DNA of 64,000 nt from an uncultured Bacilli bacterium. GTDB taxonomy: Bacteria > Bacillota_I > Bacilli_A > RF39 > UBA660. Every line of letters begins with the position of its first letter. Within the stretch, counting starts at the first letter, position 1. A program made the translations under genes and the position numbers. Below the pieces are notes generated by a model, which made no database searches, had not been told where the DNA came from, and worked only from the letters and a program-made list of their open reading frames with translations. This document shows, piece after piece, positions 79-63,403 of the stretch. The stretch is taken from assembly GCA_934089275.1 (NCBI GenBank), contig CAKOJJ010000001.1:49918-113917 (forward strand), given 5' to 3'.

Positions 79-870
79 ATGATAACTTATAATAATTTAA
101 AAATTGAAACAACAAGAAGATGTACTTTTAAATGCGCTCATTGTGAAAAAGGACCAGCAAGTGGTAAAGACCTTCAATCAAAATTTTTACCAAAAATATT
201 TACAGAAGATACCATTATTCGTAATTTAGAACTTGACGGAGGAGATGTTTTATTAGCTTACGATGTGTTAGAGACAATAGTTGATTTTATAATTCAATCT
301 AAATGTATCGTTCTTGGAGTTAACATATCTACTAACGGAACATATTTTGGACCAAGATCAGAAAGAGTGTTATCCAAATTAAAATCATACGTTACTAAGT
401 GTCAATCATATATCGGCAAGTATTCCCAAGAGGTTAGCCTAATATTATCTGCTGATGAATATCACAAAGCCGAATTAGAAAGTGTAAAAGAAGAAGATCC
501 ATGGCTTTACAAAATTTATCTAGAAAGTATTCAAGAATTAATCAATTCATCATATTTTTCAGGTAAAACTGAAACAGTTAAAGTTATTAATAAAGGAAGA
601 GCAGAGAATTTATCTGTCGAGAAATATTATCCGCCAACAATCGAAACTTATTATCTTCAAAACGGAGAAGAAATTCTTATATCAAATGCATCAGTTTTAG
701 TTGATGGAACCATAGAGAATACGAACGCTTCTTTATTCGACGATACTCTAAGTTCAATAATTTTAAGAAATAGTTTTGCTTGTACAACTACAGAAGATTT
801 TCAAAACGGATGTGAGAAAAACGAATACAATTCTAAAAATCTAGTTCTTATAAACGAAAAAAATAATTAA
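79..870 (+). CDS. radical SAM domain protein, function unknown
   Basis: N-terminal CTFKCAHC (CxxxCxxC) radical-SAM cluster motif, followed by an LELDGGDVLL (GGD/E SAM-binding) motif and ISTNGT. Preceded by the RBS AAGGAAGTG. No SPASM Cys cluster was seen. Confidence 0.6.
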   Translation: MITYNNLKIETTRRCTFKCAHCEKGPASGKDLQSKFLPKIFTEDTIIRNLELDGGDVLLAYDVLETIVDFIIQSKCIVLGVNISTNGTYFGPRSERVLSKLKSYVTKCQSYIGKYSQEVSLILSADEYHKAELESVKEEDPWLYKIYLESIQELINSSYFSGKTETVKVINKGRAENLSVEKYYPPTIETYYLQNGEEILISNASVLVDGTIENTNASLFDDTLSSIILRNSFACTTTEDFQNGCEKNEYNSKNLVLINEKNN

Positions 871-975
871 ATGATTAAAAATTACATTTTGCTTGCATTT
901 TATATGTGAGCTTATTTTTTTGTAACCTTTTATTAATTTAAACAGTTATTATATTGAAAGAGAGGAAATAATGGG

Positions 976-1440
976 ATGAATGATGAGTTTATAAAAATTT
1001 TTAATCTCTATAAAAATGACATTTATCGGCTTGCTTATAGTTATACTAAAAATAGTAATGATACAGATGACATAACCCAAAACGTATTTATTAAATTATA
1101 TAAACATAAAGAAATTTTAAAACTTGATGAAGAAAGCATTAAAAAATGGCTATTCAAAGTTACCATTAATGAATGTAAAAGTTTATTTTTATCTCATTGG
1201 AGAATAAAAGTTGCTTTGTTTGATGATAAAGATATAACAACAACTGATACCAATAATGATCTATTGGAAATTATAGCAAATTTAAATAAAAAAGAAAGAA
1301 TTATAGTTTTTCTACATTATTATGAAGGATATAAAATAAAAGAAATAGCTGAAATGATGAAACTATCTGAAGCGAATGTTAAAGTATTGTTGTCTAGAAC
1401 AAGAGGAAAATTAAAAAATATGATAGAAGGTGATAATTAA
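976..1440 (+). CDS. ECF-type sigma-70 family RNA polymerase sigma factor
   Basis: Region 2-like DITQNVFIKLYK and region 4-like IKEIAEMMKLSEANVKVLLSRTRGKLK. Size 154 aa is typical of ECF sigma factors. Its stop overlaps the next start (TAATGA). Confidence 0.7.
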   Translation: MNDEFIKIFNLYKNDIYRLAYSYTKNSNDTDDITQNVFIKLYKHKEILKLDEESIKKWLFKVTINECKSLFLSHWRIKVALFDDKDITTTDTNNDLLEIIANLNKKERIIVFLHYYEGYKIKEIAEMMKLSEANVKVLLSRTRGKLKNMIEGDN

Positions 1441-2075
1441 TGAATAAAAATATAAAAGAATCTTTTTTAAATATAAAAATGAGTGATGAATTAGAAAACA
1501 AAATTCTCAATAAAACTATTTATAGAAAAAATAGAAATTATTTAAAACCTATGCTTGTAAGTTTTCTTATTTTAATATCATTTTCATTTATAATATTCAA
1601 TAATCGAAAAATCACTTATTATTATACAATTAATCATAAATCTAATTATTCTTATACATCAAACAGTAGTGATTGGACATGGCCAACAGATCAACCATTC
1701 GTTATAATTGCAGGTTTTAAAAAAAGATGGGGTGTTGAACATAAGGGAGTAGATATCGGAGGATTAGAATTTGCATCAGCTGTGTATGCTTCTGCAGACG
1801 GAAAAATTATAGAACCTGAAAATCTATCTTCTTTAGAAGAAAAATATGGTAAAGTTATTGTTATTGAGCATTCAAATGGTTATTATACACTTTATGGTGG
1901 TTTAAACGATATCTTCGTGAAAAACAATGATGTTGTTAAATCAGGGACAAAAATCGGAACTATTGGAAAAAATAAAGAAATAGACTTTACGAGCTTACAT
2001 TTTTCCATATATAATGATCGTTCTTTATCTGAAGAAGCAGCAATTGATCCATTAAAAATATTTTCAATTAAATAG
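1440..2075 (+). CDS. membrane protein with degenerate M23/LytM peptidase-like domain; putative cognate anti-sigma factor
   Basis: Translationally coupled to the sigma gene. Short cytoplasmic N-terminus, one TM helix (LVSFLILISFSFIIF) and an extracytoplasmic M23 fold (HKGVDIGG HxxxD motif present). The second motif reads LHFS instead of HxH, so the second zinc-ligand His is absent. Confidence 0.5.
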   Translation: MNKNIKESFLNIKMSDELENKILNKTIYRKNRNYLKPMLVSFLILISFSFIIFNNRKITYYYTINHKSNYSYTSNSSDWTWPTDQPFVIIAGFKKRWGVEHKGVDIGGLEFASAVYASADGKIIEPENLSSLEEKYGKVIVIEHSNGYYTLYGGLNDIFVKNNDVVKSGTKIGTIGKNKEIDFTSLHFSIYNDRSLSEEAAIDPLKIFSIK

Positions 2076-2106: not shown

Positions 2107-3710
2107 AAATTATCATCAATTTTCATATCAAGTGCATTTGGATGTTTAGGAAGGCCAGGCATATCAATGACACTTCCTAAAAAGCAAACAATAAAACCAG
2201 CACCACTTTTTAATTCTAATTTTTGTACTGTAACATCATAATCAGTTGGGTTTCCAAGTTTTTTAGGATCATCACTAAAAGAGTATTGAGTTTTAGCTAT
2301 GCATATTGGTAAGTTACTAAATCCCAAATTTTCTATATTTTTTAATTGAGTAAGTGCATTATCTGTATAAATTATATTTTTAGCGTGATAAATATCCTTA
2401 CAAATAATTTCAATTTTATTTTGAATAGAATCATTTAAATCATATAAAAATTTAAAAGAAGAAGGATTTTTAGCTAATTCAACTATTTTTTTAGCTACGG
2501 TTATCGCACCAATGCCACCTTCTTTATAAGCATCGCTTATTTCAAAAGAAACATCTTTTTGTAATACAAATTCTTTTACAATATTAATCTCTTCTAATGT
2601 ATCTGTATCAAATCGATTCAATACAACAAGAATATTATTTGTAAATTTTTTTAAATTATCTATATGAGCTTCAAGATTGGATAAACCAATATTTAAAAAT
2701 TTATGATCTTGAGTAAGAATATCTTTTTCTTCACAATATCCATTATGTTTTAAAGATCTTATTGTACAATTCAATATAACTAAGTCAGGTTTTAATCCTA
2801 AACGACATTTTATATCAAAAAACTTTTCAGCTCCTAAATCTGATCCAAAACCAGCTTCAGTAATTACGTAGTCACTTAATGAAAGAGCAGTTCGGGTAGC
2901 AATATAAGAATTACAACCATGAGCAATATTTGCAAAAGGACCTCCATGAATAATTACAGGATTGTTTTCAAGAGATTGAACAAGATTAGGTTTCATTGCA
3001 TCTTTTAAAAGAATCATCATACTATCAGTTGCTTTTAAATCTCTAGCATAAATAGGAGAGTTGTCATATGTGTAACCGATTAAAATAGAATCTAATCTTT
3101 TTCTTAAATCATTCATATCTTTGGTTAAGCATAATATTGCCATAATTTCACTTGCAGCCGTAATGCAAAAATGTTCTTGACGATTATCTAGCATTATTTT
3201 TCTTAAAGCACGATCATTCATATCAAGAGTTCTATGAAAGCAAATAGAGTTAGGGTTAATTTCGAGTTCATTACCATGATATATATGATTATCGATAATT
3301 GCACATAATAAATTGTTACAAGATGTTATTGCATGCATATCACCTGTAAAATGTAGGTTTATATCTTCCATAGGAACAACTTGAGATTTTCCTCCTCCAG
3401 TAGCACCACCTTTCATTCCGAATGTCGGACCTAAAGACGGTTCTCTTAAAACAGCAATACTATTTTTACCAATTTTTCTTAGGGCATCATTTATTCCAAT
3501 TGACAAAGTAGTTTTTCCTTCACCATATGGAGTGGGGTGTATAGATGTTACTAAAATCAGTTTACCATTTTTAGTTTTATTTATTTTATCGTAGTTTATT
3601 TTTGCTTTATAGTTTCCATAATTTTCAATTAAACTATCAATACCAATTTCATTTGCGACGTCTTTAATTAGTTTCATTTTACATGAGGAAGCTATTTCTA
3701 TATCTGTCAT
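2085..3710 (-). CDS. fhs: formate--tetrahydrofolate ligase
   Basis: PTPYGEGKTT P-loop and strong overall resemblance to Fhs over 541 aa. Confidence 0.9.
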   Translation of the reverse strand: MTDIEIASSCKMKLIKDVANEIGIDSLIENYGNYKAKINYDKINKTKNGKLILVTSIHPTPYGEGKTTLSIGINDALRKIGKNSIAVLREPSLGPTFGMKGGATGGGKSQVVPMEDINLHFTGDMHAITSCNNLLCAIIDNHIYHGNELEINPNSICFHRTLDMNDRALRKIMLDNRQEHFCITAASEIMAILCLTKDMNDLRKRLDSILIGYTYDNSPIYARDLKATDSMMILLKDAMKPNLVQSLENNPVIIHGGPFANIAHGCNSYIATRTALSLSDYVITEAGFGSDLGAEKFFDIKCRLGLKPDLVILNCTIRSLKHNGYCEEKDILTQDHKFLNIGLSNLEAHIDNLKKFTNNILVVLNRFDTDTLEEINIVKEFVLQKDVSFEISDAYKEGGIGAITVAKKIVELAKNPSSFKFLYDLNDSIQNKIEIICKDIYHAKNIIYTDNALTQLKNIENLGFSNLPICIAKTQYSFSDDPKKLGNPTDYDVTVQKLELKSGAGFIVCFLGSVIDMPGLPKHPNALDMKIDDNLKISGLF

Positions 3711-3944
3711 ATAATTTCACCTCTGAAGATGATTATAGCATAAAAAGAGATAATTATTATATAATCGACATAAATAGACAATAATTGCTAATTTAATAAA
3801 ATATGGTAAAATAAAGATTAAGGAGAATCAATGTGAAAGAAAGCGTTACTCTTTATTTAAAAATGATTTATTTGAAGGTAAATTTTTACTGAACGATAAG
3901 CGTAAAGTAGTTAGTTATGAAATAAGAAATATGTAGGTGATTAA

Positions 3945-8068: not shown

Positions 8069-8145
8069 TGGGGCGAAATGTGGGAATCGAACCCACGCAT
8101 ACCGGAGCCACAATCCGGCGTGTTAACCACTTCACCAATTTCGCC
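8069..8145 (-). tRNA. tRNA-His (anticodon GTG)
   Basis: Folds by hand into a cloverleaf. The acceptor GCGAAAT/ATTTCGC, anticodon stem CCGGA/TCCGG with loop TTGTGGC, T-arm GTGGG-TTCGATT-CCCAC, discriminator C73, and an encoded G-1 and CCA. Confidence 0.9.
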
Positions 8146-8236
8146 ATCGACATATCTAATTCTATCAAATAATTTTATGTATTGCAAGTCCTTTATTATA
8201 TTAATTTTAAATGATATAATTTTAAAGGTGGATCAT

Positions 8237-9166
8237 ATGGAAAACAAATACATTATTAAATCAAATAGTTTTACATTTTTAAACGATAAAATAAAAGAAC
8301 TTAGTAAAGACTATAAAGAGATTGAAAATTTTTCTTTAGTTGAAGATTCAATAGATGATGTAATAGAAAGCATGCAACATTTTGGACTTTTTTCTGAAAG
8401 TAAATGTATAATCGTAAAAAATGTGAAATACTTTGCTGGTAATTTTTCATATGAAGAAGAATGTAATAAACTAAAAGATGCATTATCTAATTTAGATAAT
8501 GAAACAATGGTAATTCTTATTAATGATGAAGTTTTAAAGTCCAAAAAGATTGTAAAAGATTTGATTTCTTTAGGAGTAAAATTTATTGATTTAACTGGTA
8601 ACAATGAAGATGATGTTGTAACTTATATAACTGATTATTTTAAAAAAGAGAATATAAATATAAATAGAGATGCTTTATTGGAAATATATAATAATAGTTC
8701 AAACAATATAGATATAACTATCAATGAAATTGAAAGACTTTCCAATTTGAGCAATAACATAACTCATGATTTAGTTGTTTCAAATACTCAAAAAAATGAA
8801 GAAGATGTAACATTCGCTTTTTCAAATGCGATAATAGCTAAAGATTTTAATTTAGGATTTAAATATTTAGATGTATTATTAAAAAACGGAAGTGAACCAA
8901 TTAATATAGTCGCACTTCTTGCTAGTAGTTTTACCAATATTTATATGGTAAAAAGTGCTTCTGCTGATGGTTTAAGTGATGAAGAAATTGCTAAACTATT
9001 TGGATATTCTAATCCAAAAAGAGTAGGTGTTTTAAAAAGAAACGGAAAAATTTATACTCTTGATCAACTAAAAGATATAATTGTTTCTTTATCCAATCTA
9101 GATTTAAAATTAAAAAGTGGTTATGACCAAATTTATGCATTAAAAGAGTTCTTACTTGATTTGTAA
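8237..9166 (+). CDS. holA: DNA polymerase III subunit delta
   Basis: HolA-like pattern (FGLFSESKCIIVKN...). Start moved to the ATG at 8237, which has the RBS AAAGGTGG; the 8078 start in the ORF track would overlap tRNA-His. Confidence 0.75.
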   Translation: MENKYIIKSNSFTFLNDKIKELSKDYKEIENFSLVEDSIDDVIESMQHFGLFSESKCIIVKNVKYFAGNFSYEEECNKLKDALSNLDNETMVILINDEVLKSKKIVKDLISLGVKFIDLTGNNEDDVVTYITDYFKKENININRDALLEIYNNSSNNIDITINEIERLSNLSNNITHDLVVSNTQKNEEDVTFAFSNAIIAKDFNLGFKYLDVLLKNGSEPINIVALLASSFTNIYMVKSASADGLSDEEIAKLFGYSNPKRVGVLKRNGKIYTLDQLKDIIVSLSNLDLKLKSGYDQIYALKEFLLDL

Positions 9167-14541: not shown

Positions 14542-15822
14542 ATGATTAAGAAAGTTATTATATTAAACAAAAAAGGTAATATTGATAGAAGTTTAGTTGT
14601 TTTTGACAGTGATTCATGTTGTGAAAAAAATCCTGAAAACACAAAAAAAATTATAACTAAATTTATGGAAGAAAAAGGAAAAAGTTACGAAGCATTGTGT
14701 TCTGATAAGGACATTATAGTTTTTAATAAAAAACAAAATTATGAACTAGCAAAAGAAGGTATAAAAAAATACATCAAATATACAGATAAAAAATTCGCTT
14801 TTATAAGTTTAACTGTTTTATTCCAATTGATAATACAAATCACTACTAGACAATTTCATTACTTTGACACTTTTCTTTTAGATATTCAAACTTTTATATT
14901 ATTGGGAATGAATGTGGTTTCTAATGGTGTTTTATTAATTTTGAATACTTTTTTAAATAAGACCCATAAGAAATATAAATTAGGCAAAAACAAACTTGGA
15001 AATCGTTTATTAGCATTATCTATTGGTCTTTCTTTATATTCGTTTATTAATTATTGTGTTCCAGTAGAAACTCTTCCATATTATTTATCTATCAAATCTA
15101 CAAATATTGAAGATTCTTATGAAAGTCGTGAGGAACAAGTTGATAAAATATTTACTGATTTATCAAATTCTCCGTATTTAGAAGATGATGAAATTGAAAT
15201 AATTAATAATTTAAAAGAATATATAGAAGAAAATCCATACATATCATTAAACGACTTGTACAAGACTCTTATGACTTTGCAAGTTAACGATAAGACTTAT
15301 GTTGGTAAAGAAGCTATAGGTGCTGTCTATGACCCTGATTTTAATACAATTTCGTATTATGGATCTCCAAGAGTGAGTAAAGAATACATTTTGGAACACG
15401 AATTTGTTCATTCAACCGGAAATTTAGAAAATCTCATTTTAAACGAAGGATATACTTCTATATTAGTTTCAGGAATAGCAGATACAGATAGAAAATTAGA
15501 TTATTATGATGAATATAGATGGTGTACAGAACAAGTAATTAAATTGGTAGGAGATGACGTTGTTCTTAAAGCATATTCTGAAGATAATCAAGCATTTTTA
15601 GACCAACAACTTGCTAGATGCTTTAAAAGCCCAGAAAACGTTCAAGAATTATATGATTTATTTGAAAGATATTCTATGCCTAATAGTAAAGTTGAAAAAG
15701 ATGTTGTAGAAGCTTTTATTTATGATAACATAACAGACGATGAAAAAGACTATTTAATTTATGTTGAGTCAATGAGTCAAACGTGTGACTTTGAACAAGA
15801 AGAGTTGCTTTTAACAAAGTAA
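14542..15822 (+). CDS. membrane protein with C-terminal HExxH (putative zinc metallopeptidase-like) domain
   Basis: Central TM helices and a C-terminal EHEFVHSTGN (HExxH) motif. Confidence 0.45.
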   Translation: MIKKVIILNKKGNIDRSLVVFDSDSCCEKNPENTKKIITKFMEEKGKSYEALCSDKDIIVFNKKQNYELAKEGIKKYIKYTDKKFAFISLTVLFQLIIQITTRQFHYFDTFLLDIQTFILLGMNVVSNGVLLILNTFLNKTHKKYKLGKNKLGNRLLALSIGLSLYSFINYCVPVETLPYYLSIKSTNIEDSYESREEQVDKIFTDLSNSPYLEDDEIEIINNLKEYIEENPYISLNDLYKTLMTLQVNDKTYVGKEAIGAVYDPDFNTISYYGSPRVSKEYILEHEFVHSTGNLENLILNEGYTSILVSGIADTDRKLDYYDEYRWCTEQVIKLVGDDVVLKAYSEDNQAFLDQQLARCFKSPENVQELYDLFERYSMPNSKVEKDVVEAFIYDNITDDEKDYLIYVESMSQTCDFEQEELLLTK

Positions 15823-15885: not shown

Positions 15886-17580
15886 GTGAAAAAGAAAAAT
15901 GGTTTTACTTTGGTAGAATTACTTGCTGTTATCGTTGTTTTAGCACTTATTATGATAGTAGTCGTGCCAAGTGTTATGAAATCAATCGGAAGCGCAAGAA
16001 AGGAATCGTTTTACTTATATGCTCAAAGTTTACAAAGTAAAGCGACTGCAAAATATACTCAAGATTTAGATTTAAACAAAAACAATACTGAATGTGCTGT
16101 ATATGATATTTCTAAAGATTTGGATATTGGTAATACCGGAAAATATGAAGGCTGGGTTAAAATTAATCGTGTAGCTGTATCTTCTGGAAATCTAGTTGCT
16201 ACTGCTTCGATTAAAAACGATAGTTTGAGTGGAGTATACTATTGTGTTACCAGTTCAGGATCATGTACTCCAAACGAAACATATTATTATGAAGAAGGAA
16301 AAACTGAAGTAAATATCAATAAAACAATAGGTGCCAACGACAAGCTTTGCTATAACTATAAATATGCTGACGCTAGTAAAACACTTAGAACAAGCAATAC
16401 AACATGTATAAGTGGGAAAGATACTGGTATAAAAGACACATATCGATATGATGTATATATTACTTTAAAGGATTCTAATTATAAAGTTGAAAATGTATTA
16501 TTTAATAAAGACATGCCAATGGAAACTTTTTATGATGAAATGCAATCCAAAGGAGATTTAAGTATATCAAGTTTAAGTTGTTCATCTAGTGGAAGTGAAA
16601 TAAAAGGAACAACAACAGTTAAAACAACAAAAGTTACTAGTCAATCGACTACAACTGATGGAACAACGAAGGTAACTACAAGTCAACAAATCGATGATAA
16701 AACTAGTCAAGTTACAACAACTACAACAACTACAAAACAAACTATTGAAGCTGAAAAGACTACAACAACAACTCGTCAAACTTATGTTATACCTTCTACA
16801 ACAATAGAACCAGAAAAAACAGCTTTACTTTTAAATACTTTAAATGTATCTGGTTATGACATATCTTTCAGTCCAATGAAATTTAGTTATGAATTAACAG
16901 TTCCAAACGGAACAGCATCACTATCTATTTCAGCAACATCTACTGATCCAAATACTGTCGTTACAGTAATAGGTGCTGACGGATTAACGATTGGATCTAA
17001 TATAATAAGAATCAATTTATCAAATCCAAATGAAAGTAAAGAAGCTAACTATTATATTCAAGTAAGAAGGTTAGATGAACTTGGAAAAATTGTAGAAGTT
17101 ACAAGAACAAATGACGCTCCTATATATAATAGAGAAGAAGGACTTCCAGACCCAACGCTTCCATCAAGTGATGCATCTCTTTCAAGCTTAACTGTTTCAG
17201 GATATATGCTAGAATTTGATAAAAACAAATACGATTATGAACTTACAATAGTAGATGCAGATACACTACCAATAAGATACGAAACAACATCTTCTAAAGC
17301 TCGTGCTTATATGGAAGGCAACGAATCTTTAAAAGACGGCTCAAAAATTAGCATATATGTTACAAGCGAAAATGGATATTACAAAAAAGCTTACACTATA
17401 ACAGTTCACACTAAAAAAGAAACAAATATAATGAGTTCATTCTTAAAATTCCTAATTGCTGGTTTAGGAGTAGTACTTCTTGCTTTACTAGTAATAATAA
17501 GTGCTAATAAAAGAACAAGTAGAATAGTAAGAAACAAAAACGATATTGTTGATACCACTAATGATAATAAAAACATTTAA
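15886..17580 (+). CDS. prepilin-type N-terminal cleavage/methylation domain protein with Thr-rich linker, cadherin-like beta-sandwich repeats and C-terminal TM anchor
   Basis: GTG start with the RBS GAGGGTG. N-terminus MKKKNG|FTLVELLAVIVVLALIM has the class III signal with E5. Also carries TTTTTTKQT low-complexity stretches, LSxLxVSGY...Y.Y modules and a C-terminal hydrophobic helix plus basic tail. Confidence 0.7.
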   Translation: MKKKNGFTLVELLAVIVVLALIMIVVVPSVMKSIGSARKESFYLYAQSLQSKATAKYTQDLDLNKNNTECAVYDISKDLDIGNTGKYEGWVKINRVAVSSGNLVATASIKNDSLSGVYYCVTSSGSCTPNETYYYEEGKTEVNINKTIGANDKLCYNYKYADASKTLRTSNTTCISGKDTGIKDTYRYDVYITLKDSNYKVENVLFNKDMPMETFYDEMQSKGDLSISSLSCSSSGSEIKGTTTVKTTKVTSQSTTTDGTTKVTTSQQIDDKTSQVTTTTTTTKQTIEAEKTTTTTRQTYVIPSTTIEPEKTALLLNTLNVSGYDISFSPMKFSYELTVPNGTASLSISATSTDPNTVVTVIGADGLTIGSNIIRINLSNPNESKEANYYIQVRRLDELGKIVEVTRTNDAPIYNREEGLPDPTLPSSDASLSSLTVSGYMLEFDKNKYDYELTIVDADTLPIRYETTSSKARAYMEGNESLKDGSKISIYVTSENGYYKKAYTITVHTKKETNIMSSFLKFLIAGLGVVLLALLVIISANKRTSRIVRNKNDIVDTTNDNKNI

Positions 17581-54117: not shown

Positions 54118-54183
54118 ATAAAAGTCTTTTCAAGAACCTTATTCAATAGTATAATAAATTAAATAGATATTATGAGGTATTTT

Positions 54184-56460
54184 ATGGAAAAAGCGTGGAT
54201 AGACTATAAAACAGATGAAGAAACTTTTAAAACAATAATGCAATATGAAGAAGAGTTTGTCAGGACTTATATGAAAAAGAAGTATGGCAGAAATTATGAT
54301 GCCACTGCAAATAAAACACCGATGTTAAAAAAAGATGAAGAAAGATTTGCACTAGCATCTCTTTTAGTTCAACTAGATATATTATGTGTAGACAAATTAA
54401 AATTAAAAAATATGGATTTACAAGCATTCTTTAGTAAACCTGAGAATCTAATGATTAGAAAATTATGTTTAGCCACTGGCTTAGAAGTTAGTAGTATAGA
54501 AAATATAATCAATAAATTTCCAAAAGAAACTCGTACTGTACTAATTTATTTATTTGGAATAAACCGAAAACAAATAAAATTTGAAGACGCTGAAAGTATA
54601 TTTAATCTATCAGAAGACGAAATATACAAAATTTTACTAACAGGAGTTAGAAGATTAAAATATGATATTAAATTAGTTCAAGGAAGTAAAAATGCTGGAA
54701 AAATACCGAGTATGATCATAATAGATCTTGAGAAAAAAGGATATTCTAGATCAGAATTAATAAAAGCATTAAACTTATATGACGATAGAACTAAATGCAC
54801 ACTACAAAAGTATTACGGATATAATTATTCCTCTGCAAAGTCTCCTATAACGCCTGTTATGCCTGGAGACGAAGAAATCATCAATAATGTTTTAACAGGA
54901 GAAAATAATATTGACGTACAAGTACAAAAACTAAGAGAAAAACAAGCAAAAGTTATTGAACGAGCAAAAATAAAAAAAGCTGAAGAAATTATTCCAGAAA
55001 GACCTTTCAATATAATAAGGTTTTATAAAAAACAAGGTTATAGTACTTTAGAAATTACAACAGCCTATCATTCATTAAGTAATGAAGAACGCACTCTAAT
55101 AGAAAAACAATTTGATAAAAATTATAACGAAATAAAAGATGCTAAACTAACCGAAGAGGAAAAAGAAACAATTTTTAATCTTACAAGAAGCGAAACTCAA
55201 GGAATAGGAAAAGCTTTAAAGAATAAATATAAAAAATCAGGTTCTCAAAAAACTACGGTTGATGAAAAACCTATAGAGAATAAACCAGCAAAGGCCCCAG
55301 CAAAACCAAAAACCGAAACTAAGAAAATAGCAAAGAAACCAAAAGAGGATAAGGCAAATAAACCAGAAAAAGTGCTTCCATCAAAACTTGATGAGGTTAA
55401 AAATAAGAAGGCACAAGCCAAGAAATATAAATCCATTAACGAATGTAAAACTTTGAATGAATTCTACAAACAATTTGGCTTTGACGATGAAGATCTAGAA
55501 AGCGTTTATAAAGTCTTACCACGTGGTGCACTAAGACACTTTGAGAATTACATAGACGTTCAATATGTAGATGGTAATAATCATGTGTTCAAAATCAAAA
55601 AATTCGTTCCTACAAGTGATGTAACTGCAAGACAATATTTAAAATACACTATATTAATACCTTTAACTAAGCATAGAGTTGCCAAAGGAAAGAATTTAGA
55701 TATGGAAAAAATTCCAACGTATGTTTTGAATAAACTTAAGAACTGTAAACATCAACAAAAAATTATATTTAGTGAGTATAAGACCTTAAATGAGTATTAT
55801 GAAGCCCGTGGATTAGACAGCGCAACATTAAAATATGTGTATTCAAAAACAAGAACAGGAAAAGATTATTTTGATGAATTTATCGATATAGTTAAAACCG
55901 ATAATGGCAGATGTATATTTAAAATCAAAAAACCGATAGACCGAAATAACACATCAGTTTTTAAATATTTTACTCAAATATTACCACAACAAATAACTAG
56001 GAATCACGTCAAATTTTTATCAAGCGAAACTCAAATTGTTGAAGAAAGAGAAACTTTACCTATAAATGACCGTGATACTTCTTTAAATACAACTGTTGAT
56101 AGTCAAACGACCAATATAGAATCATCAATTGACTTAAAAATTTATATGGGTGAATACATAACTTCAGTAAAAGAAACTAATATTATTACACGAGAATTAA
56201 TAATGAGTCTTGGATTGCCTAAACGTTATGAGTATTTTCTTTTAAATGAATTTGTTGCAAATAAAAACAATAATATAAGTTTGGATGAAGAGGCAGAGAT
56301 TTTAAATCTAGATGCAATTGAATTATGCAAAATATTAATAGAAGCAATTGAACTATTAAAAGCAAAAATAAATAGCATACTAATGATTAATAATTTCGAA
56401 ACCCATCAAACTCCAAAAACCGATGATGGAGAAACAAACCTAAAAAAAGCGTTGAATTAA
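54184..56460 (+). CDS. large Lys-rich multi-HTH protein, paralog A (sigma-70-like N-terminal module + repeats)
   Basis: Start at MEKAWIDYK, with the RBS GAGGT. N-terminus homologous to the proteins at 59636 and 61949. The C-terminal 60 aa is nearly identical to that of 61949. Contains internal ...TLNEYY...FKIKK repeats. Confidence 0.6.
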   Translation: MEKAWIDYKTDEETFKTIMQYEEEFVRTYMKKKYGRNYDATANKTPMLKKDEERFALASLLVQLDILCVDKLKLKNMDLQAFFSKPENLMIRKLCLATGLEVSSIENIINKFPKETRTVLIYLFGINRKQIKFEDAESIFNLSEDEIYKILLTGVRRLKYDIKLVQGSKNAGKIPSMIIIDLEKKGYSRSELIKALNLYDDRTKCTLQKYYGYNYSSAKSPITPVMPGDEEIINNVLTGENNIDVQVQKLREKQAKVIERAKIKKAEEIIPERPFNIIRFYKKQGYSTLEITTAYHSLSNEERTLIEKQFDKNYNEIKDAKLTEEEKETIFNLTRSETQGIGKALKNKYKKSGSQKTTVDEKPIENKPAKAPAKPKTETKKIAKKPKEDKANKPEKVLPSKLDEVKNKKAQAKKYKSINECKTLNEFYKQFGFDDEDLESVYKVLPRGALRHFENYIDVQYVDGNNHVFKIKKFVPTSDVTARQYLKYTILIPLTKHRVAKGKNLDMEKIPTYVLNKLKNCKHQQKIIFSEYKTLNEYYEARGLDSATLKYVYSKTRTGKDYFDEFIDIVKTDNGRCIFKIKKPIDRNNTSVFKYFTQILPQQITRNHVKFLSSETQIVEERETLPINDRDTSLNTTVDSQTTNIESSIDLKIYMGEYITSVKETNIITRELIMSLGLPKRYEYFLLNEFVANKNNNISLDEEAEILNLDAIELCKILIEAIELLKAKINSILMINNFETHQTPKTDDGETNLKKALN

Positions 56461-59635: not shown

Positions 59636-61933
59636 ATGGAAAGAATAAAAAGAATAAATCGAATGTTTAATGGAACAGATCAAGAATTAAGGACAATATA
59701 TAAATATGAAACTGAATTAGTAAGAGATCAATTGGAAAATCAATTTTCTGATTTTTTTACTAGAAAGAAAAGAATTCATTTATGTGAATATGAAAAACTT
59801 ATGTTTCCTATCGTTCAAGAAATCATGAATATAGACCTTATTTGTATCCGCAAATTAGAAGACGAATCTAACATTGAATCATTTTTACGTGGAACAAACA
59901 TTATAGAACGTATTAAATTTGCATATGACATAGATAATGAAACAATGGAAAAGAATTTTAATAGGATTCCCAATAAAGCTAAAAAAGCTATTGAGTTGCT
60001 ATTTAATTTAACTGATGAAAACTTAACTGTTGAAGAAATTCTTGAAGTATTAGATACAGATTATGATGGTCTTAATAGAATAGTTAAAAATAACTTACGT
60101 TTCTTATTTTTTAATTCCCCAAAGGAAGCACAAACAAATAAATCTCAAAAAAGTGTTTTTGTTATACCAAGATATTTTTTCAAATATTTTGAAAAAATGG
60201 GATATTTTTATGACGATATCTATTTTGCAGTTGAATCTTGTACAGATAGTATAAAAAATACATTAAAGAAAATATATGGTGAATTTTATAACGATGTAAA
60301 AAATATCAAAGCAACTTTAACAAATGAAGATATTCAAAATTTAAAAAATGTATTTATTAGTCCAGATAAATGCCTTATACATTCTATCAAAGAAATAAAC
60401 AAATCAATAAAAATACCAAGCTATACAGGATCAATAAGACATTTTGACTTAATGAATTATTATATTAGTATAGGTTATTCAAAAGAAATAGTAGTTGAAG
60501 TTTTTAAAGAATTATCTCCATTAAATAAACAAATACTAGATTTATATTTTCAATCAAATCACACATTAAAACCTCATCAAGTTTTGAAATTTGGACAAAT
60601 GCTTAGAGCAGGTGAAGCAAGTAAAGTATATAATTTGCTATTCAATCCAAATGAAGGTATTCAACAAGCTTTAAAAGACAAATCAAATATCCACAGTTCT
60701 ACATGTTGTAGTGACACTGGAATGATAATAGATGTTTATCAATTCTATGAAAATCTTGGTTATGAAAGAGAAACTGTAAAAAAGGCATTAAAACAAATCG
60801 ATGTTGACACATTAAAAGCAATCTTGAAATTTTACGATGAAAACCTTCTATTGAGAGAATCTTATTCACAAAACGCTCAATTTCAAAAAATTATTTCATC
60901 AACATTAATAAATCCAACTTCCTATATCGCAAAAAATATCTTAGATGATAAAATTTTACCTAACTACAATGATAATATAAATGAAAAAGTTTATACAAAT
61001 GGATATATTCATTTAGGTATACGAGGAATACCAGCAAACTATGTAAATCACGCAATTTCTTTATTAGATCCTTGCGATAGAGCCGTATTAAATAAATATT
61101 ACACTAGCAAATTTCACTTACGTGACGAGATTGCCATTAACGAACAAGAACTAGATGCATTATTTGATAAACTAATATATTTAGCTATTAACTACAATGA
61201 AATAATAAAAAAGAGTAGAGAAGAAAAATGTCAAAAGGCACAAGATGTACTTATTAACATAGGTTGTTCTAAAGACGCCGTTATGTATGTAATCAATGAT
61301 TTGGATACTTCAACAATTGAAAAAATAATATCTTCAGTAAAACCTAAAAAGAATACATCTAGTGGAACAGGGTTATTGTTAACACAATTCATTATTAAAA
61401 GCGAATATGTTGCTAAAATTTGCAATTTAAAAGATTTTATAATATCTCTAGGATACACAGACAAAGAATTTACTGAATTTTTAGATGTTATTAATAAGTA
61501 TTCAAGAAGATTTGAATTATCTGCTTATTTTGATTTAGATACATTTGAACTAAAAAGTGAATATCGTTTTGATAAAGAAACTCTAGAGGATTTACGCCAT
61601 CATTTAGATTACTTCTTATCAATATTCATTCACCATAAAGAAAATCAATCAAATATCGCTAATATTGATAATGTATATTATTCAATATTAAACGATGTTA
61701 GTGTCAAAACTAAAAACTGCATAATAGACAATAAAGGATTTAAAGCAAGTGTTTATCAAAAATTTCCTAGTAGAAATATAAACTATTATGTGTTATTATC
61801 AAATCGTATATCATCTAATTCGTTTGATGGACTTACTGAACTATTAATCTATAGAGCATTATTTAATAATGCATATAAAGAGTACATAGGAATCGAAACA
61901 GAACTAAAGAAAACCTTAGTTGATAACAAATAA
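59636..61933 (+). CDS. large multi-HTH protein, paralog B
   Basis: N-terminal about 160 aa homologous to A and C (IDLICIRKLE...LLFNLTDENLTVEEILEVL). At least six roughly 45-aa GY(S/T)..E repeats. Confidence 0.55.
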   Translation: MERIKRINRMFNGTDQELRTIYKYETELVRDQLENQFSDFFTRKKRIHLCEYEKLMFPIVQEIMNIDLICIRKLEDESNIESFLRGTNIIERIKFAYDIDNETMEKNFNRIPNKAKKAIELLFNLTDENLTVEEILEVLDTDYDGLNRIVKNNLRFLFFNSPKEAQTNKSQKSVFVIPRYFFKYFEKMGYFYDDIYFAVESCTDSIKNTLKKIYGEFYNDVKNIKATLTNEDIQNLKNVFISPDKCLIHSIKEINKSIKIPSYTGSIRHFDLMNYYISIGYSKEIVVEVFKELSPLNKQILDLYFQSNHTLKPHQVLKFGQMLRAGEASKVYNLLFNPNEGIQQALKDKSNIHSSTCCSDTGMIIDVYQFYENLGYERETVKKALKQIDVDTLKAILKFYDENLLLRESYSQNAQFQKIISSTLINPTSYIAKNILDDKILPNYNDNINEKVYTNGYIHLGIRGIPANYVNHAISLLDPCDRAVLNKYYTSKFHLRDEIAINEQELDALFDKLIYLAINYNEIIKKSREEKCQKAQDVLINIGCSKDAVMYVINDLDTSTIEKIISSVKPKKNTSSGTGLLLTQFIIKSEYVAKICNLKDFIISLGYTDKEFTEFLDVINKYSRRFELSAYFDLDTFELKSEYRFDKETLEDLRHHLDYFLSIFIHHKENQSNIANIDNVYYSILNDVSVKTKNCIIDNKGFKASVYQKFPSRNINYYVLLSNRISSNSFDGLTELLIYRALFNNAYKEYIGIETELKKTLVDNK

Positions 61934-61948
61934 ATATAGAGGTGAATT

Positions 61949-63403
61949 ATGGAGAAAGCTTGGATTGATTATAAAACAGATGAAGAAACATTTAAAACAA
62001 TAGTAAATTATGAAGAAGACTTTGTTTATGACATGATGAGAAAGAAATATGGAAAAGATTTTGATGGAATAAACGTAAAAAGTTCGATTAAAAGAAGCGA
62101 GATTTATAAATATAATCTTGCTGATGATTTAATAAAACTAGATGTATTATGTGCTGAAAAACTTAAAGCAAAAGGTAAAAATATAGCTGGTTTTTTTAGA
62201 AACAGTACTGACTTAATGTTGAGAAAATTATGCACAGCTTATGATCTAAACTCAACAGAATTGGACGGGGTCATTACCTGTATTTCTTCAGAATATCGTG
62301 ATATTTTTGTATACGCTTCTGGAATTAATAGAAAAAAAGTCAAAATGCCAGTAATTGTATCAATGTTTAATACTACCACTGATGATGCTTACATGAAAAT
62401 AGCATTTGCGTTGCGTGAAATAGAAAAAATTGTAAAAGACAGAAAAAACAGACTAACAGAGAGTTCTCAAAAGAAAACAACTATTCCAAATTTATCACAA
62501 AAACACTACGGTCAAAATCTCGATAAGATTAAATCTCCAATAAGTCCAGCACCAAAAGAAGCCGAAAAAGCAATCTTAAATGTTCAACACGGATCCAACA
62601 GTGGCATTGAAAAAATAAAACAAACTGAAACTTCTGAAATTCAAGAAAAACAAGAAAATCCACAAATTGAAGTGTCTAAAACTAATCCAAAAGAAAATCC
62701 AAGTAGCAATGGAGATGGTAAAATGCATAAAAGAAAAAACGTGCCAATAGATAAACACCAAACATTAAATGAATATTATCAAGCACGTGGTTTTAGTAAA
62801 GAAGCCTTAGAAAATTTATATAGTAAATTAACAGCTCGTGGAAAAGCATATTTTGATAAATATATTGAAGTTATTGAAAACGATGACAATACTCACACTT
62901 TTAAAATCAAAAAGGCAATTCCTAAATATGATAAAGACTCACGTGATTATTTTACAAAAAGCGCCTGTGCAGTCTTAAGCAAATTTTCAAATACTGAAGC
63001 AGTATCTACAGAAATAGAAACCATAAAACCAACAAAAGAAAATGATAATAAACCATCTATAGATTTAAAGAATAATGTAACTGCTTACCTAAGCGCATTA
63101 AAACTTTCAAAGATTATAACTAGAGAATTAATTATAAACCTTCAATTACCTAAAAAATATGAGTATTTTCTTTTAACTGAATTTGATACAAATGGTAATA
63201 ATGAATTCAGTTTGGAAGAAGAAGCAGAATTTTTAAATATGAGTGTTGAAGAGTTATGTAAACATTTAATTGAATCAATTGAATATTTAAAAACTCAATT
63301 AAATGATAAGTTATCAATGGATAAAAGTAGAGTAGGAAAGTTATTAAACAGCAATACTCAACCAGATGACGGAGAAGTAGACATGAAAAAAACGTTGAAT
63401 TAA
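61949..63403 (+). CDS. large multi-HTH protein, paralog C
   Basis: MEKAWIDYKTDEETFKTI N-terminus and ITRELI...EYFLL...EELCKHLIESIEYLK C-terminus, both shared with A. RBS GAGGTG. Confidence 0.6.
   Translation: MEKAWIDYKTDEETFKTIVNYEEDFVYDMMRKKYGKDFDGINVKSSIKRSEIYKYNLADDLIKLDVLCAEKLKAKGKNIAGFFRNSTDLMLRKLCTAYDLNSTELDGVITCISSEYRDIFVYASGINRKKVKMPVIVSMFNTTTDDAYMKIAFALREIEKIVKDRKNRLTESSQKKTTIPNLSQKHYGQNLDKIKSPISPAPKEAEKAILNVQHGSNSGIEKIKQTETSEIQEKQENPQIEVSKTNPKENPSSNGDGKMHKRKNVPIDKHQTLNEYYQARGFSKEALENLYSKLTARGKAYFDKYIEVIENDDNTHTFKIKKAIPKYDKDSRDYFTKSACAVLSKFSNTEAVSTEIETIKPTKENDNKPSIDLKNNVTAYLSALKLSKIITRELIINLQLPKKYEYFLLTEFDTNGNNEFSLEEEAEFLNMSVEELCKHLIESIEYLKTQLNDKLSMDKSRVGKLLNSNTQPDDGEVDMKKTLN

Follow-up and report, generated by a model that had tools for sequence, protein, structure and literature searches.

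We analyzed a 64,000-nucleotide (nt) stretch of DNA, hereafter the window, from an uncultured gut Bacilli bacterium (GTDB Bacillota_I; Bacilli_A; RF39; UBA660), which corresponds to positions 49,918-113,917 of the forward strand of contig CAKOJJ010000001.1 in assembly GCA_934089275.1. Bases 921-2100 of the window probably constitute a self-contained two-gene regulatory unit, in which a sigma factor of the extracytoplasmic function (ECF) type is paired with a single-pass membrane protein that would act as its anti-sigma factor. The outer part of the membrane protein is a domain of the M23/LytM peptidase fold. The unit is a rare and clean case of its architecture, and it fits the established anti-sigma paradigm.

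A conserved two-gene operon

Three open reading frames (ORFs) lie on one strand at the beginning of the window, at 79-870 (263 amino acids (aa)), 976-1440 (154 aa) and 1440-2075 (211 aa), exactly where an initial annotation of this DNA had placed them. They encode a radical S-adenosylmethionine (SAM)-like protein, the sigma factor and the M23 protein, respectively. The window is AT-rich (26-30% GC) and the source organism is likewise low in GC (about 27%). The same contig was found among public assemblies (L001) and supplied the sequence upstream of window position 1.

The product of the second ORF (976-1440, + strand) is an ECF (group 4) sigma factor. It matched the Pfam models Sigma70_r2 (E 1e-11) and r4_2 (E 1.5e-15), and it scored 86.8 bits against the NCBIfam sigma70-ECF model TIGR02937, of which the cutoff is 42.9. 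The protein thus has the properties of group 4, namely sigma-2 and sigma-4 regions alone, a length within about 150-200 aa and a match to the superfamily model, and the initial call of an ECF sigma factor is borne out. Its score against the NCBIfam SigV model was 75 bits (cutoff 190). Relatives of the sigma factor at E<=1e-10 numbered 324.

The stop codon of the sigma gene and the start codon of the M23 gene overlap by 1 nt as TAATG, the M23 ORF beginning on the last base of the stop codon, and the M23 ORF has a good Shine-Dalgarno sequence (AAGGTGA). This overlap supports the translational coupling that had been proposed for the two genes. An overlap is also kept in the relatives, with 4 nt in loci L004 and L010 and 8 nt in L044. 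The pair is intact in all complete loci of the window lineage, with changing neighbours on either side. Sigma factor and M23 protein form a coupled pair, encoded in a conserved two-gene operon.

The ECF-type promoter motif TGTAAC-N16-AGTTAT (921-949, + strand), which is conserved upstream of the sigma genes of this family, lies directly 3' of a hairpin at 891-911 (TGTAAC-N16-AGTTATTATATTGAAAG). Its consensus, TGTRAY-N16-WGTTAT, preceded the sigma gene at each of the 20 distinct loci in which the sigma factor scored at least 147 bits, including the 45%-identical sigma factor of L044. A conserved -35/-10 pair therefore precedes the sigma gene, as is expected of a sigma/anti-sigma pair. In Bacillus, ECF promoters have AAC-containing -35 elements, which the -35 half of the motif resembles. 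The 64-kb window contains one credible site of this consensus, which is the sigma promoter itself, and when the motif was used for a regulon search in the other fetched loci, chance sites alone were obtained, either intragenic or antisense. The motif at 921-949 is probably an autoregulatory promoter that this sigma factor would recognize.

The sigma/M23 unit is bracketed by conserved terminators at both sides. On the upstream side, the hairpin at 891-911 and a T-run (891-921, + strand) resemble an intrinsic terminator that ends the transcription unit of the radical-SAM gene and a preceding P-loop gene. On the downstream side, a strong intrinsic terminator (2078-2100, + strand), with a 9-bp stem containing 5 GC pairs and a T-run, ends the operon and is common to the sigma/M23 operon and the convergent fhs gene. 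The terminator scan returned three sites against 0.7 expected, all at gene ends: after an upstream ABC permease gene, after the radical-SAM gene and after the M23 gene. In L004, L009, L010 and L043 the 891-911 hairpin is conserved, with base changes that preserve the pairing, and L010 retains it despite the absence of the radical-SAM gene from that locus.

The membrane protein shares its N-terminal module with other sigma partners

The M23 protein begins with a charged segment (aa 1-37; 1440-1550, + strand) that ends in YRKNRNYLKP and, from its homology to the N-termini of partners without an M23 domain, is putatively the cytoplasmic sigma-binding part. It is followed by a single hydrophobic transmembrane helix read from the sequence (aa 38-54, MLVSFLILISFSFIIF; 1551-1601, + strand) and by a short Asn/Tyr/Ser-rich linker. 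Since the basic residues of YRKNRNYLKP are on the N side of the helix, the N-terminus would face the cytoplasm and the C-terminal domain the outside. The same hydrophobic segment with basic residues in front agrees with the single-pass membrane protein of the initial annotation.

Downstream of the sigma relatives at 55-60% identity, with an overlap or a 3-nt gap, lie genes for single-pass proteins of 249-255 aa that carry no Pfam domain. The N-termini of these non-M23 partners read MNKKIKNAFSDVxVSExLERxILNMT, followed by basic residues and a transmembrane helix, and align with the window protein; the pattern common to both is MNKKIKxxFxxIxxSxxLExxILNxT, again with the basic residues and the helix. 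When a 58-residue query from the window M23 protein was searched with phmmer against the fetched ORFs, the non-M23 partners were matched at E 1e-6 to 1e-4. The homology to these partners covers residues 1-58 of the window protein, which comprise the cytoplasmic segment and the helix. Among partners whose sigma factors show 45-60% identity, the N-terminal module is homologous, and a co-transcribed downstream membrane partner is thus conserved across orthologous sigma factors, as is expected of an ECF sigma/anti-sigma pair.

The outer domains of the non-M23 partners are unrelated to M23, and the M23 domain of the window protein occupies the same position. Sub-threshold Pfam or NCBIfam matches of the non-M23 partners were to DUF3379 in three and to DUF4367 or DUF4179 in single members; of the 15 family partners, a single one matched DUF4179 (E 0.021), and a Pfam search of the window M23 protein did not detect this domain. 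Since the outer domains differ while the N-termini agree, it is the short cytoplasmic segment with the transmembrane helix that is the conserved feature of the partners. Membrane anti-sigma factors are expected to show such a pattern, a conserved N-terminal module joined to a differing ectodomain, and it supports this role here. By its position, predicted topology and N-terminal module, the M23 protein is most likely the cognate membrane anti-sigma factor. The anti-sigma reading of the initial annotation has thereby gained a coupled pair, the position, the topology and the shared module, all of them drawn from comparison.

In the non-M23 partners, for example those encoded at L037:4475-5224 and L040:4473-5234, a conserved VYA followed by xEIK stands right after the transmembrane helix. 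This motif looks like a signal-peptidase-like site and is reminiscent of the site-1 cleavage of RsiV.

Several observations weigh against the assignment. Residues 1-81 of the M23 protein gave no Pfam or NCBIfam match even at E<=10, the N-terminal module fits no curated anti-sigma family (zf-HC2, RskA, DUF4179 and others), and a sequence profile search of the PDB with this module returned no match. An AlphaFold2 model of the M23 protein, calculated from a 6-sequence alignment, had a predicted local distance difference test score (pLDDT) of 34 and was unusable. The VYA motif is absent from both M23-bearing versions of the family, namely the window protein and P0190, a protein of a second lineage described below. 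The release mechanism, or its first cleavage step, may therefore differ in the window protein. Besides the operon itself, no regulon member was found in the window and the fetched loci, which covered about 74 kb of the source genome. Because P0190 keeps an intact active site, members of this family may use the M23 part as something other than a passive sensor. Finally, sigma binding by the M23 protein is putative.

The M23 domain retains the zinc ligands and lacks both catalytic histidines

The extracytoplasmic M23/LytM domain (aa 75-211; 1662-2072, + strand) matched Pfam PF01551 at E 9.9e-21 with 74.2 bits (cutoff 28.7) and aligned to solved M23 domains, so that the M23/LytM fold described initially is upheld. 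Residue equivalences were taken from HMMER alignments to solved M23 domains and from aligning the 45 nearest M23 domains, which were obtained in the exhaustive search described below. In LytM, H210, D214 and H293 are the zinc ligands, whereas the catalytic histidines H260 and H291 activate the water nucleophile, and alanine at either catalytic histidine abolishes the activity of LytM, lysostaphin, LasA and Ale-1 (PMC4594094). The window protein keeps H101 and D105 of HxxxD and H187, the second His of HxH, which are equivalent to LytM H210, D214 and H293. Both catalytic histidines are replaced: LytM H260 by G154 in the Y-x-H-L strand, and LytM H291 by S185 at the first His of HxH.

The domain had been described as catalytically degenerate, which the loss of both catalytic histidines substantiates. 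The loss of a His in HxH had also been noticed, and it is the first His that is lost. Its role was misassigned: the lost residue had been taken for a zinc ligand, although all three ligands are present and S185 replaces a catalytic His, and the second loss, at G154, had been overlooked. Judged from these alignments, the window M23 domain is a zinc-site-retaining and catalytically disabled form, not a case of metal-ligand loss.

The five positions read H-D-G-S-H in all five sequences of the window lineage, that is, the window protein and four cluster representatives that are 76-96% identical. The 45 nearest M23 domains that were scored comprise 2 in the window lineage and 43 outside it, and 42 of the latter read H-D-H-H-H. 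The remaining outside domain, P0212, reads V-N-H-Q-H; it has lost the zinc ligands and kept the H260 equivalent. The ratio of nonsynonymous to synonymous substitution rates (dN/dS) of the M23 domain was 0.11-0.31 over pairs with dS from 0.06 to 1.09. The domain is under purifying selection and is not decaying.

A persisting endopeptidase activity of the domain against peptidoglycan, with the pair being an autolysin or bacteriocin-type gene served by a sigma factor of its own, is very unlikely. The zinc triad is intact, and the sister architecture of P0190 has the full catalytic set. In addition, a word-index homologue search with the M23 protein returned its own lineage and one phage lysin-like protein; the latter, P0005 (L008:3347-4557), is the nearest relative outside the lineage by this index, with 35% identity and an intact active site. 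It is endolysin-like, and its gene follows an XhlA-like gene and tail-fibre genes in the lysis cassette of a phage. However, both catalytic histidines are replaced in every member of the window lineage, and a single alanine at either position is sufficient to inactivate four different M23 enzymes (PMC4594094).

A further alternative is that the membrane protein is a cell-wall effector under the control of the sigma factor, either a LytM-type hydrolase activator or scaffold like EnvC, NlpD and ActS or a SpoIIQ-like adaptor, and that the sigma factor itself is controlled elsewhere. Degenerate LytM domains are classic activators. The best matches of the M23 domain among solved structures were DipM (E 1.9e-9) and EnvC (E 1e-6), and the best NCBIfam matches of the protein were ActS (5e-17) and NlpD (1.8e-13), with SpoIIQ also matched (9.5e-10). 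SpoIIQ likewise has the layout of a short N-terminus, a transmembrane helix and a LytM domain. The LytM domain of SpoIIQ is described as working by protein binding, in C. difficile with a zinc motif that is intact (PMC4982068). However, the scores are far under the family cutoffs (ActS, 62 bits against 375; NlpD, 50.6 against 311; SpoIIQ, 38.5 against 250), and the protein is not a member of these families. Moreover, the N-terminal module is common to the non-M23 partners of orthologous sigma factors, which fits a sigma-linked role better than a mere anchor, and the overlap with the sigma gene is conserved. The two roles are also compatible, since an anti-sigma factor could sense by docking to a hydrolase. 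We therefore consider an effector with an unrelated sigma control unlikely, and keep the anti-sigma reading.

The architecture is rare and occurs in a second lineage

When 1.84 billion cluster representatives were searched exhaustively with HMMER, 17,482 M23 matches were obtained. Among the best 150 of these, two were near full-length, namely the cluster of the window lineage itself (3e-105) and P0190. The latter is a protein of 219 aa, matched over query residues 2-192 and found at loci L044, L045 and L063. P0190 has the same N-terminal module, transmembrane helix and M23 domain, the last with an intact catalytic set (HTGID, YSHI, HLHFE). Its gene overlaps the preceding gene, for an ECF sigma factor 45% identical to that of the window, by 8 nt and shares the TGTRAY-N16-WGTTAT promoter. 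The architecture had been expected to be uncommon, and indeed one other lineage has it among the best 150 of the 17,482 matches.

In a collection with one genome per species (185,579 species), a pair of the window type was found in a single genome, L010. The next-nearest M23 proteins in this collection are roughly 500 aa long, come from related Bacilli, Erysipelotrichaceae and 'Tenericutes' metagenome-assembled genomes (MAGs), and have no adjacent sigma gene. In neighbour-joining trees, which carry no support values and place the window lineage on a long branch, the two lineages with M23 did not come out as sisters, whether by sigma factor or by M23 domain. This hints that M23 was acquired twice in this sigma family. 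Literature searches, of which the coverage was incomplete, found no description of an anti-sigma factor with an M23 or LytM domain, and the main text of the ECF reclassification paper does not mention M23.

The radical-SAM gene is a separate accessory gene

The first ORF (79-870, + strand) is a divergent radical-SAM-like gene that neighbours the sigma unit and lies outside it. Its product of 263 aa contains the motifs C15-x3-C19-x2-C22, GGD (54-56) and TNG (85-87), which are conserved among its few relatives, and has no C-terminal Cys cluster. In these respects the initial annotation was accurate, and the profile support is weaker than it implied. The best support was a match to PHROG 1802, 'radical SAM domain-containing protein' (E 3.5e-8, aa 6-175). 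Pfam matches were below the cutoffs (Radical_SAM, E 0.064, 13.9 against 29.5 bits; Fer4_12, E 0.003, 18.3 against 22 bits). NCBIfam gave 22.2 bits for MoaA (cutoff 231), 15.9 bits for NrdG (cutoff 131) and no match for QueE. By these scores the gene is outside the housekeeping families QueE, NrdG and MoaA, so that the concern raised initially, that it might belong to a family such as QueE or NrdG, came out negative.

An AlphaFold2 model of the radical-SAM protein from a 5-sequence alignment had a pLDDT of 46 and was unusable, and Foldseek with this low-quality model returned noise alone, consisting of unrelated folds (best E 0.0096, TM-score 0.24). In a sequence search of the PDB the only matches were YydG (E 0.035-0.053) and a spurious one to Rab, and the word-index homologue search returned the protein's own lineage only. 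The gene is under purifying selection (dN/dS 0.13-0.17). A 360-aa sequence, P0011, in which the radical-SAM N-terminus looked joined to unrelated sequence, comes from one 3.1-kb contig only and was set aside as a probable assembly chimera.

A P-loop kinase-like gene (186 aa, GNKRAGKTT; L001:9419-9979) is located 21 nt upstream of the radical-SAM gene, and window bases 1-57 are its 3' end. Its product showed a marginal match to AAA_14 and a weak similarity to thymidylate or deoxynucleoside monophosphate kinases. The two genes are probably co-transcribed. A TTAATA-16-TATAAT site precedes the P-loop gene, and no sigma-type promoter was found there.

The content of this unit varies among relatives. 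In L009, of which the M23 protein is 96% identical to that of the window, the P-loop gene is absent, and in L043 it is split. In L010, an 'uncultured Bacilli' MAG with a 77%-identical M23 protein, the P-loop gene, terminator, promoter, sigma gene and M23 gene are present and the radical-SAM gene is absent. The radical-SAM gene is also absent nearby in the L044/L045 lineage. The P-loop and radical-SAM genes are accessory, and each can be lost without the other.

The initial annotation had joined the radical-SAM enzyme, the sigma factor and the M23 protein into one system, in which the enzyme modifies a peptide or cofactor under the control of the sigma factor. The three genes are indeed adjacent on the same strand in most members of the lineage, and the purifying selection on the radical-SAM gene also speaks for this model. 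However, the terminator (891-911) and the promoter (921-949) intervene between the radical-SAM gene and the sigma gene. The radical-SAM gene is thereby placed upstream of the sigma promoter, in a unit that has no promoter of this type. In addition, the gene is missing from L010 and the L044 lineage, its P-loop partner is itself absent or split in L009 and L043, respectively, and the 15 ORFs of at least 30 aa listed for the 2.5 kb upstream include no conspicuous ORF for a precursor peptide. It is thus extremely improbable that the three genes form one system. From the intervening terminator and promoter and the absence in L010, it follows that the radical-SAM gene is a separate accessory gene; it forms no part of the sigma system and belongs to a variably present unit with the P-loop gene.

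A prokaryotic viperin (pVip) with its kinase was considered for the P-loop/radical-SAM pair. The PADLOC defence-system models gave no match for the radical-SAM protein, the sigma factor or the M23 protein, and weak matches in the P-loop region alone for the P-loop protein. The idea was therefore dropped.

Other features of the window and its relatives

Beside the P-loop/radical-SAM block, in all relatives, lies a gene for a 285-aa protein with an HEQFH (HExxH-like) motif (L001:8447-9304), which had no family match in Pfam, PADLOC or PHROGs. A 146-aa coiled-coil protein is also encoded upstream of the P-loop gene on L001. A diversity-generating retroelement with bAvd and reverse transcriptase genes is present just upstream of the 285-aa/P-loop/radical-SAM block in relatives (L005:2530-5002, L004:891-2627, L010:31-1776) and is absent from the contig of the window strain, L001. 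In L005, a 150-nt variable repeat (2530-2679) at the 3' end of a 469-aa gene and a template repeat (2877-3026) are 91% identical, and 12 of the 13 mismatches are at template adenines. In L037, a fragment resembling a tRNA 3' end (3750-3800, GGTTCGAATCC...CCA) lies some 200 nt upstream of the sigma promoter; it may be the remnant of an integration site.

Elsewhere in the window, large ORFs at 54172-56460, 59636-61933, 61949-63403 and 14542-15822 (762, 765, 484 and 426 aa) had no Pfam match at E<=1e-5. The 564-aa protein encoded at 15886-17580 combines a prepilin-type methylation motif at its N-terminus with a cadherin-like beta-sandwich domain and is therefore a large pilin-like protein. A tRNA-His gene (8069-8144, - strand) overlaps the listed start of a 362-aa ORF (8078-9166, + strand). 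The equivalent public gene (L001 18159-19088) encodes 309 aa and matches DNA polymerase III delta; the true start of the ORF is therefore probably downstream of the tRNA-His gene.

Discussion

In the SigV-RsiV system of Bacillus subtilis, Enterococcus and C. difficile, an ECF sigma factor is paired with a single-pass anti-sigma factor serving as the receptor for lysozyme. It would be the closest functional analogue of the window pair. Going by what is generally known of RsiV, the two would share a co-transcribed single-pass anti-sigma factor with a very short cytoplasmic segment, autoregulation and a Firmicute host. The outer domain is in both cases concerned with attack on the cell wall, a role that is proposed on the side of the window protein. 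They differ in that the window sensor is of the M23/LytM type, whereas the RsiV sensor is of the DUF4179 type; the window sigma factor scored under the NCBIfam cutoff for SigV, and its partner is not a member of RsiV.

In concept, the closest system is SigI-RsgI. In Clostridium thermocellum, the outer modules of these anti-sigma factors are carbohydrate-binding or glycoside-hydrolase-like domains. As generally understood, a conserved anti-sigma N-terminal module and a transmembrane helix are combined there with swappable enzyme-derived sensors, which resembles the family described here. In contrast to the window sigma factor, SigI is not a group 4 ECF factor; the N-terminal module also differs, and the window sensor appears to come from a peptidoglycan peptidase and not from a glycan-binding module.

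At the level of the domain, the closest proteins are the non-catalytic LytM proteins EnvC, NlpD, ActS, DipM and B. subtilis SpoIIQ, in which an M23 fold with a disabled site serves binding instead of cleavage, as is proposed for the window protein. None of them is known to be coupled to a sigma factor. EnvC and NlpD lack zinc ligands, and in DipM the alignment shows two Asn residues in place of the His and Asp of HxxxD, whereas the window protein keeps the three ligands. The lineage of P0190 is similar in its N-terminal module, transmembrane helix, M23 domain, preceding ECF sigma factor of the same family and promoter motif. It differs in the intact M23 active site and in the absence of the radical-SAM and P-loop neighbours, and its M23 domain and sigma factor are not the closest relatives of those of the window in the neighbour-joining trees.

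We propose the following mechanism. The cytoplasmic N-terminus of roughly 37 residues would hold the sigma factor at the membrane, and the linker of about 20 residues would keep the M23 pseudo-peptidase sensor close to the membrane. The ectodomain would bind a ligand without cutting it, as is suggested by the conservation of the zinc triad and the loss of the catalytic histidines. Candidates for the ligand are a stem peptide or cross-bridge of the peptidoglycan, or else a protein docking in the groove of the M23 domain. Damage or remodelling of the cell wall, for example, might alter the occupancy of the site, and this could bring about the removal of the ectodomain and proteolysis within the membrane, as for other single-pass anti-sigma factors. 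The freed sigma factor would then transcribe its own operon from TGTRAY-N16-WGTTAT, and a further regulon.

A bolder and quite tentative extension is that a minimal anti-sigma scaffold of about 35 aa and a transmembrane helix has had an M23 domain grafted onto it at least twice, giving a catalytic form in P0190 and a zinc-retaining pseudo-enzyme receptor in the window lineage. The pseudo-enzyme might then report the cross-link state of the peptidoglycan directly, or be a decoy or receptor for incoming M23-type lysins. If this were true, it would be a mode of cell-wall sensing not yet described for anti-sigma factors, and the active and the dead form would provide a natural before-and-after series of an enzyme turning into a sensor.

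The scope of the finding is narrow, as the architecture was found in two small lineages of uncultured gut Bacilli among the best 150 of the 17,482 matches. Within this scope, the sister lineage with the intact site is a natural comparison for the disabled domain of the window protein, and the sigma family pairs a conserved N-terminal scaffold with differing sensor domains. ECF sigma/anti-sigma pairs are a major route of trans-membrane signalling in bacteria, and the ligands of few sensor domains are known. An anti-sigma factor with a zinc-binding and non-cutting M23 domain would point to a class of ligands, namely peptidoglycan peptides or proteins that bind in the M23 groove.

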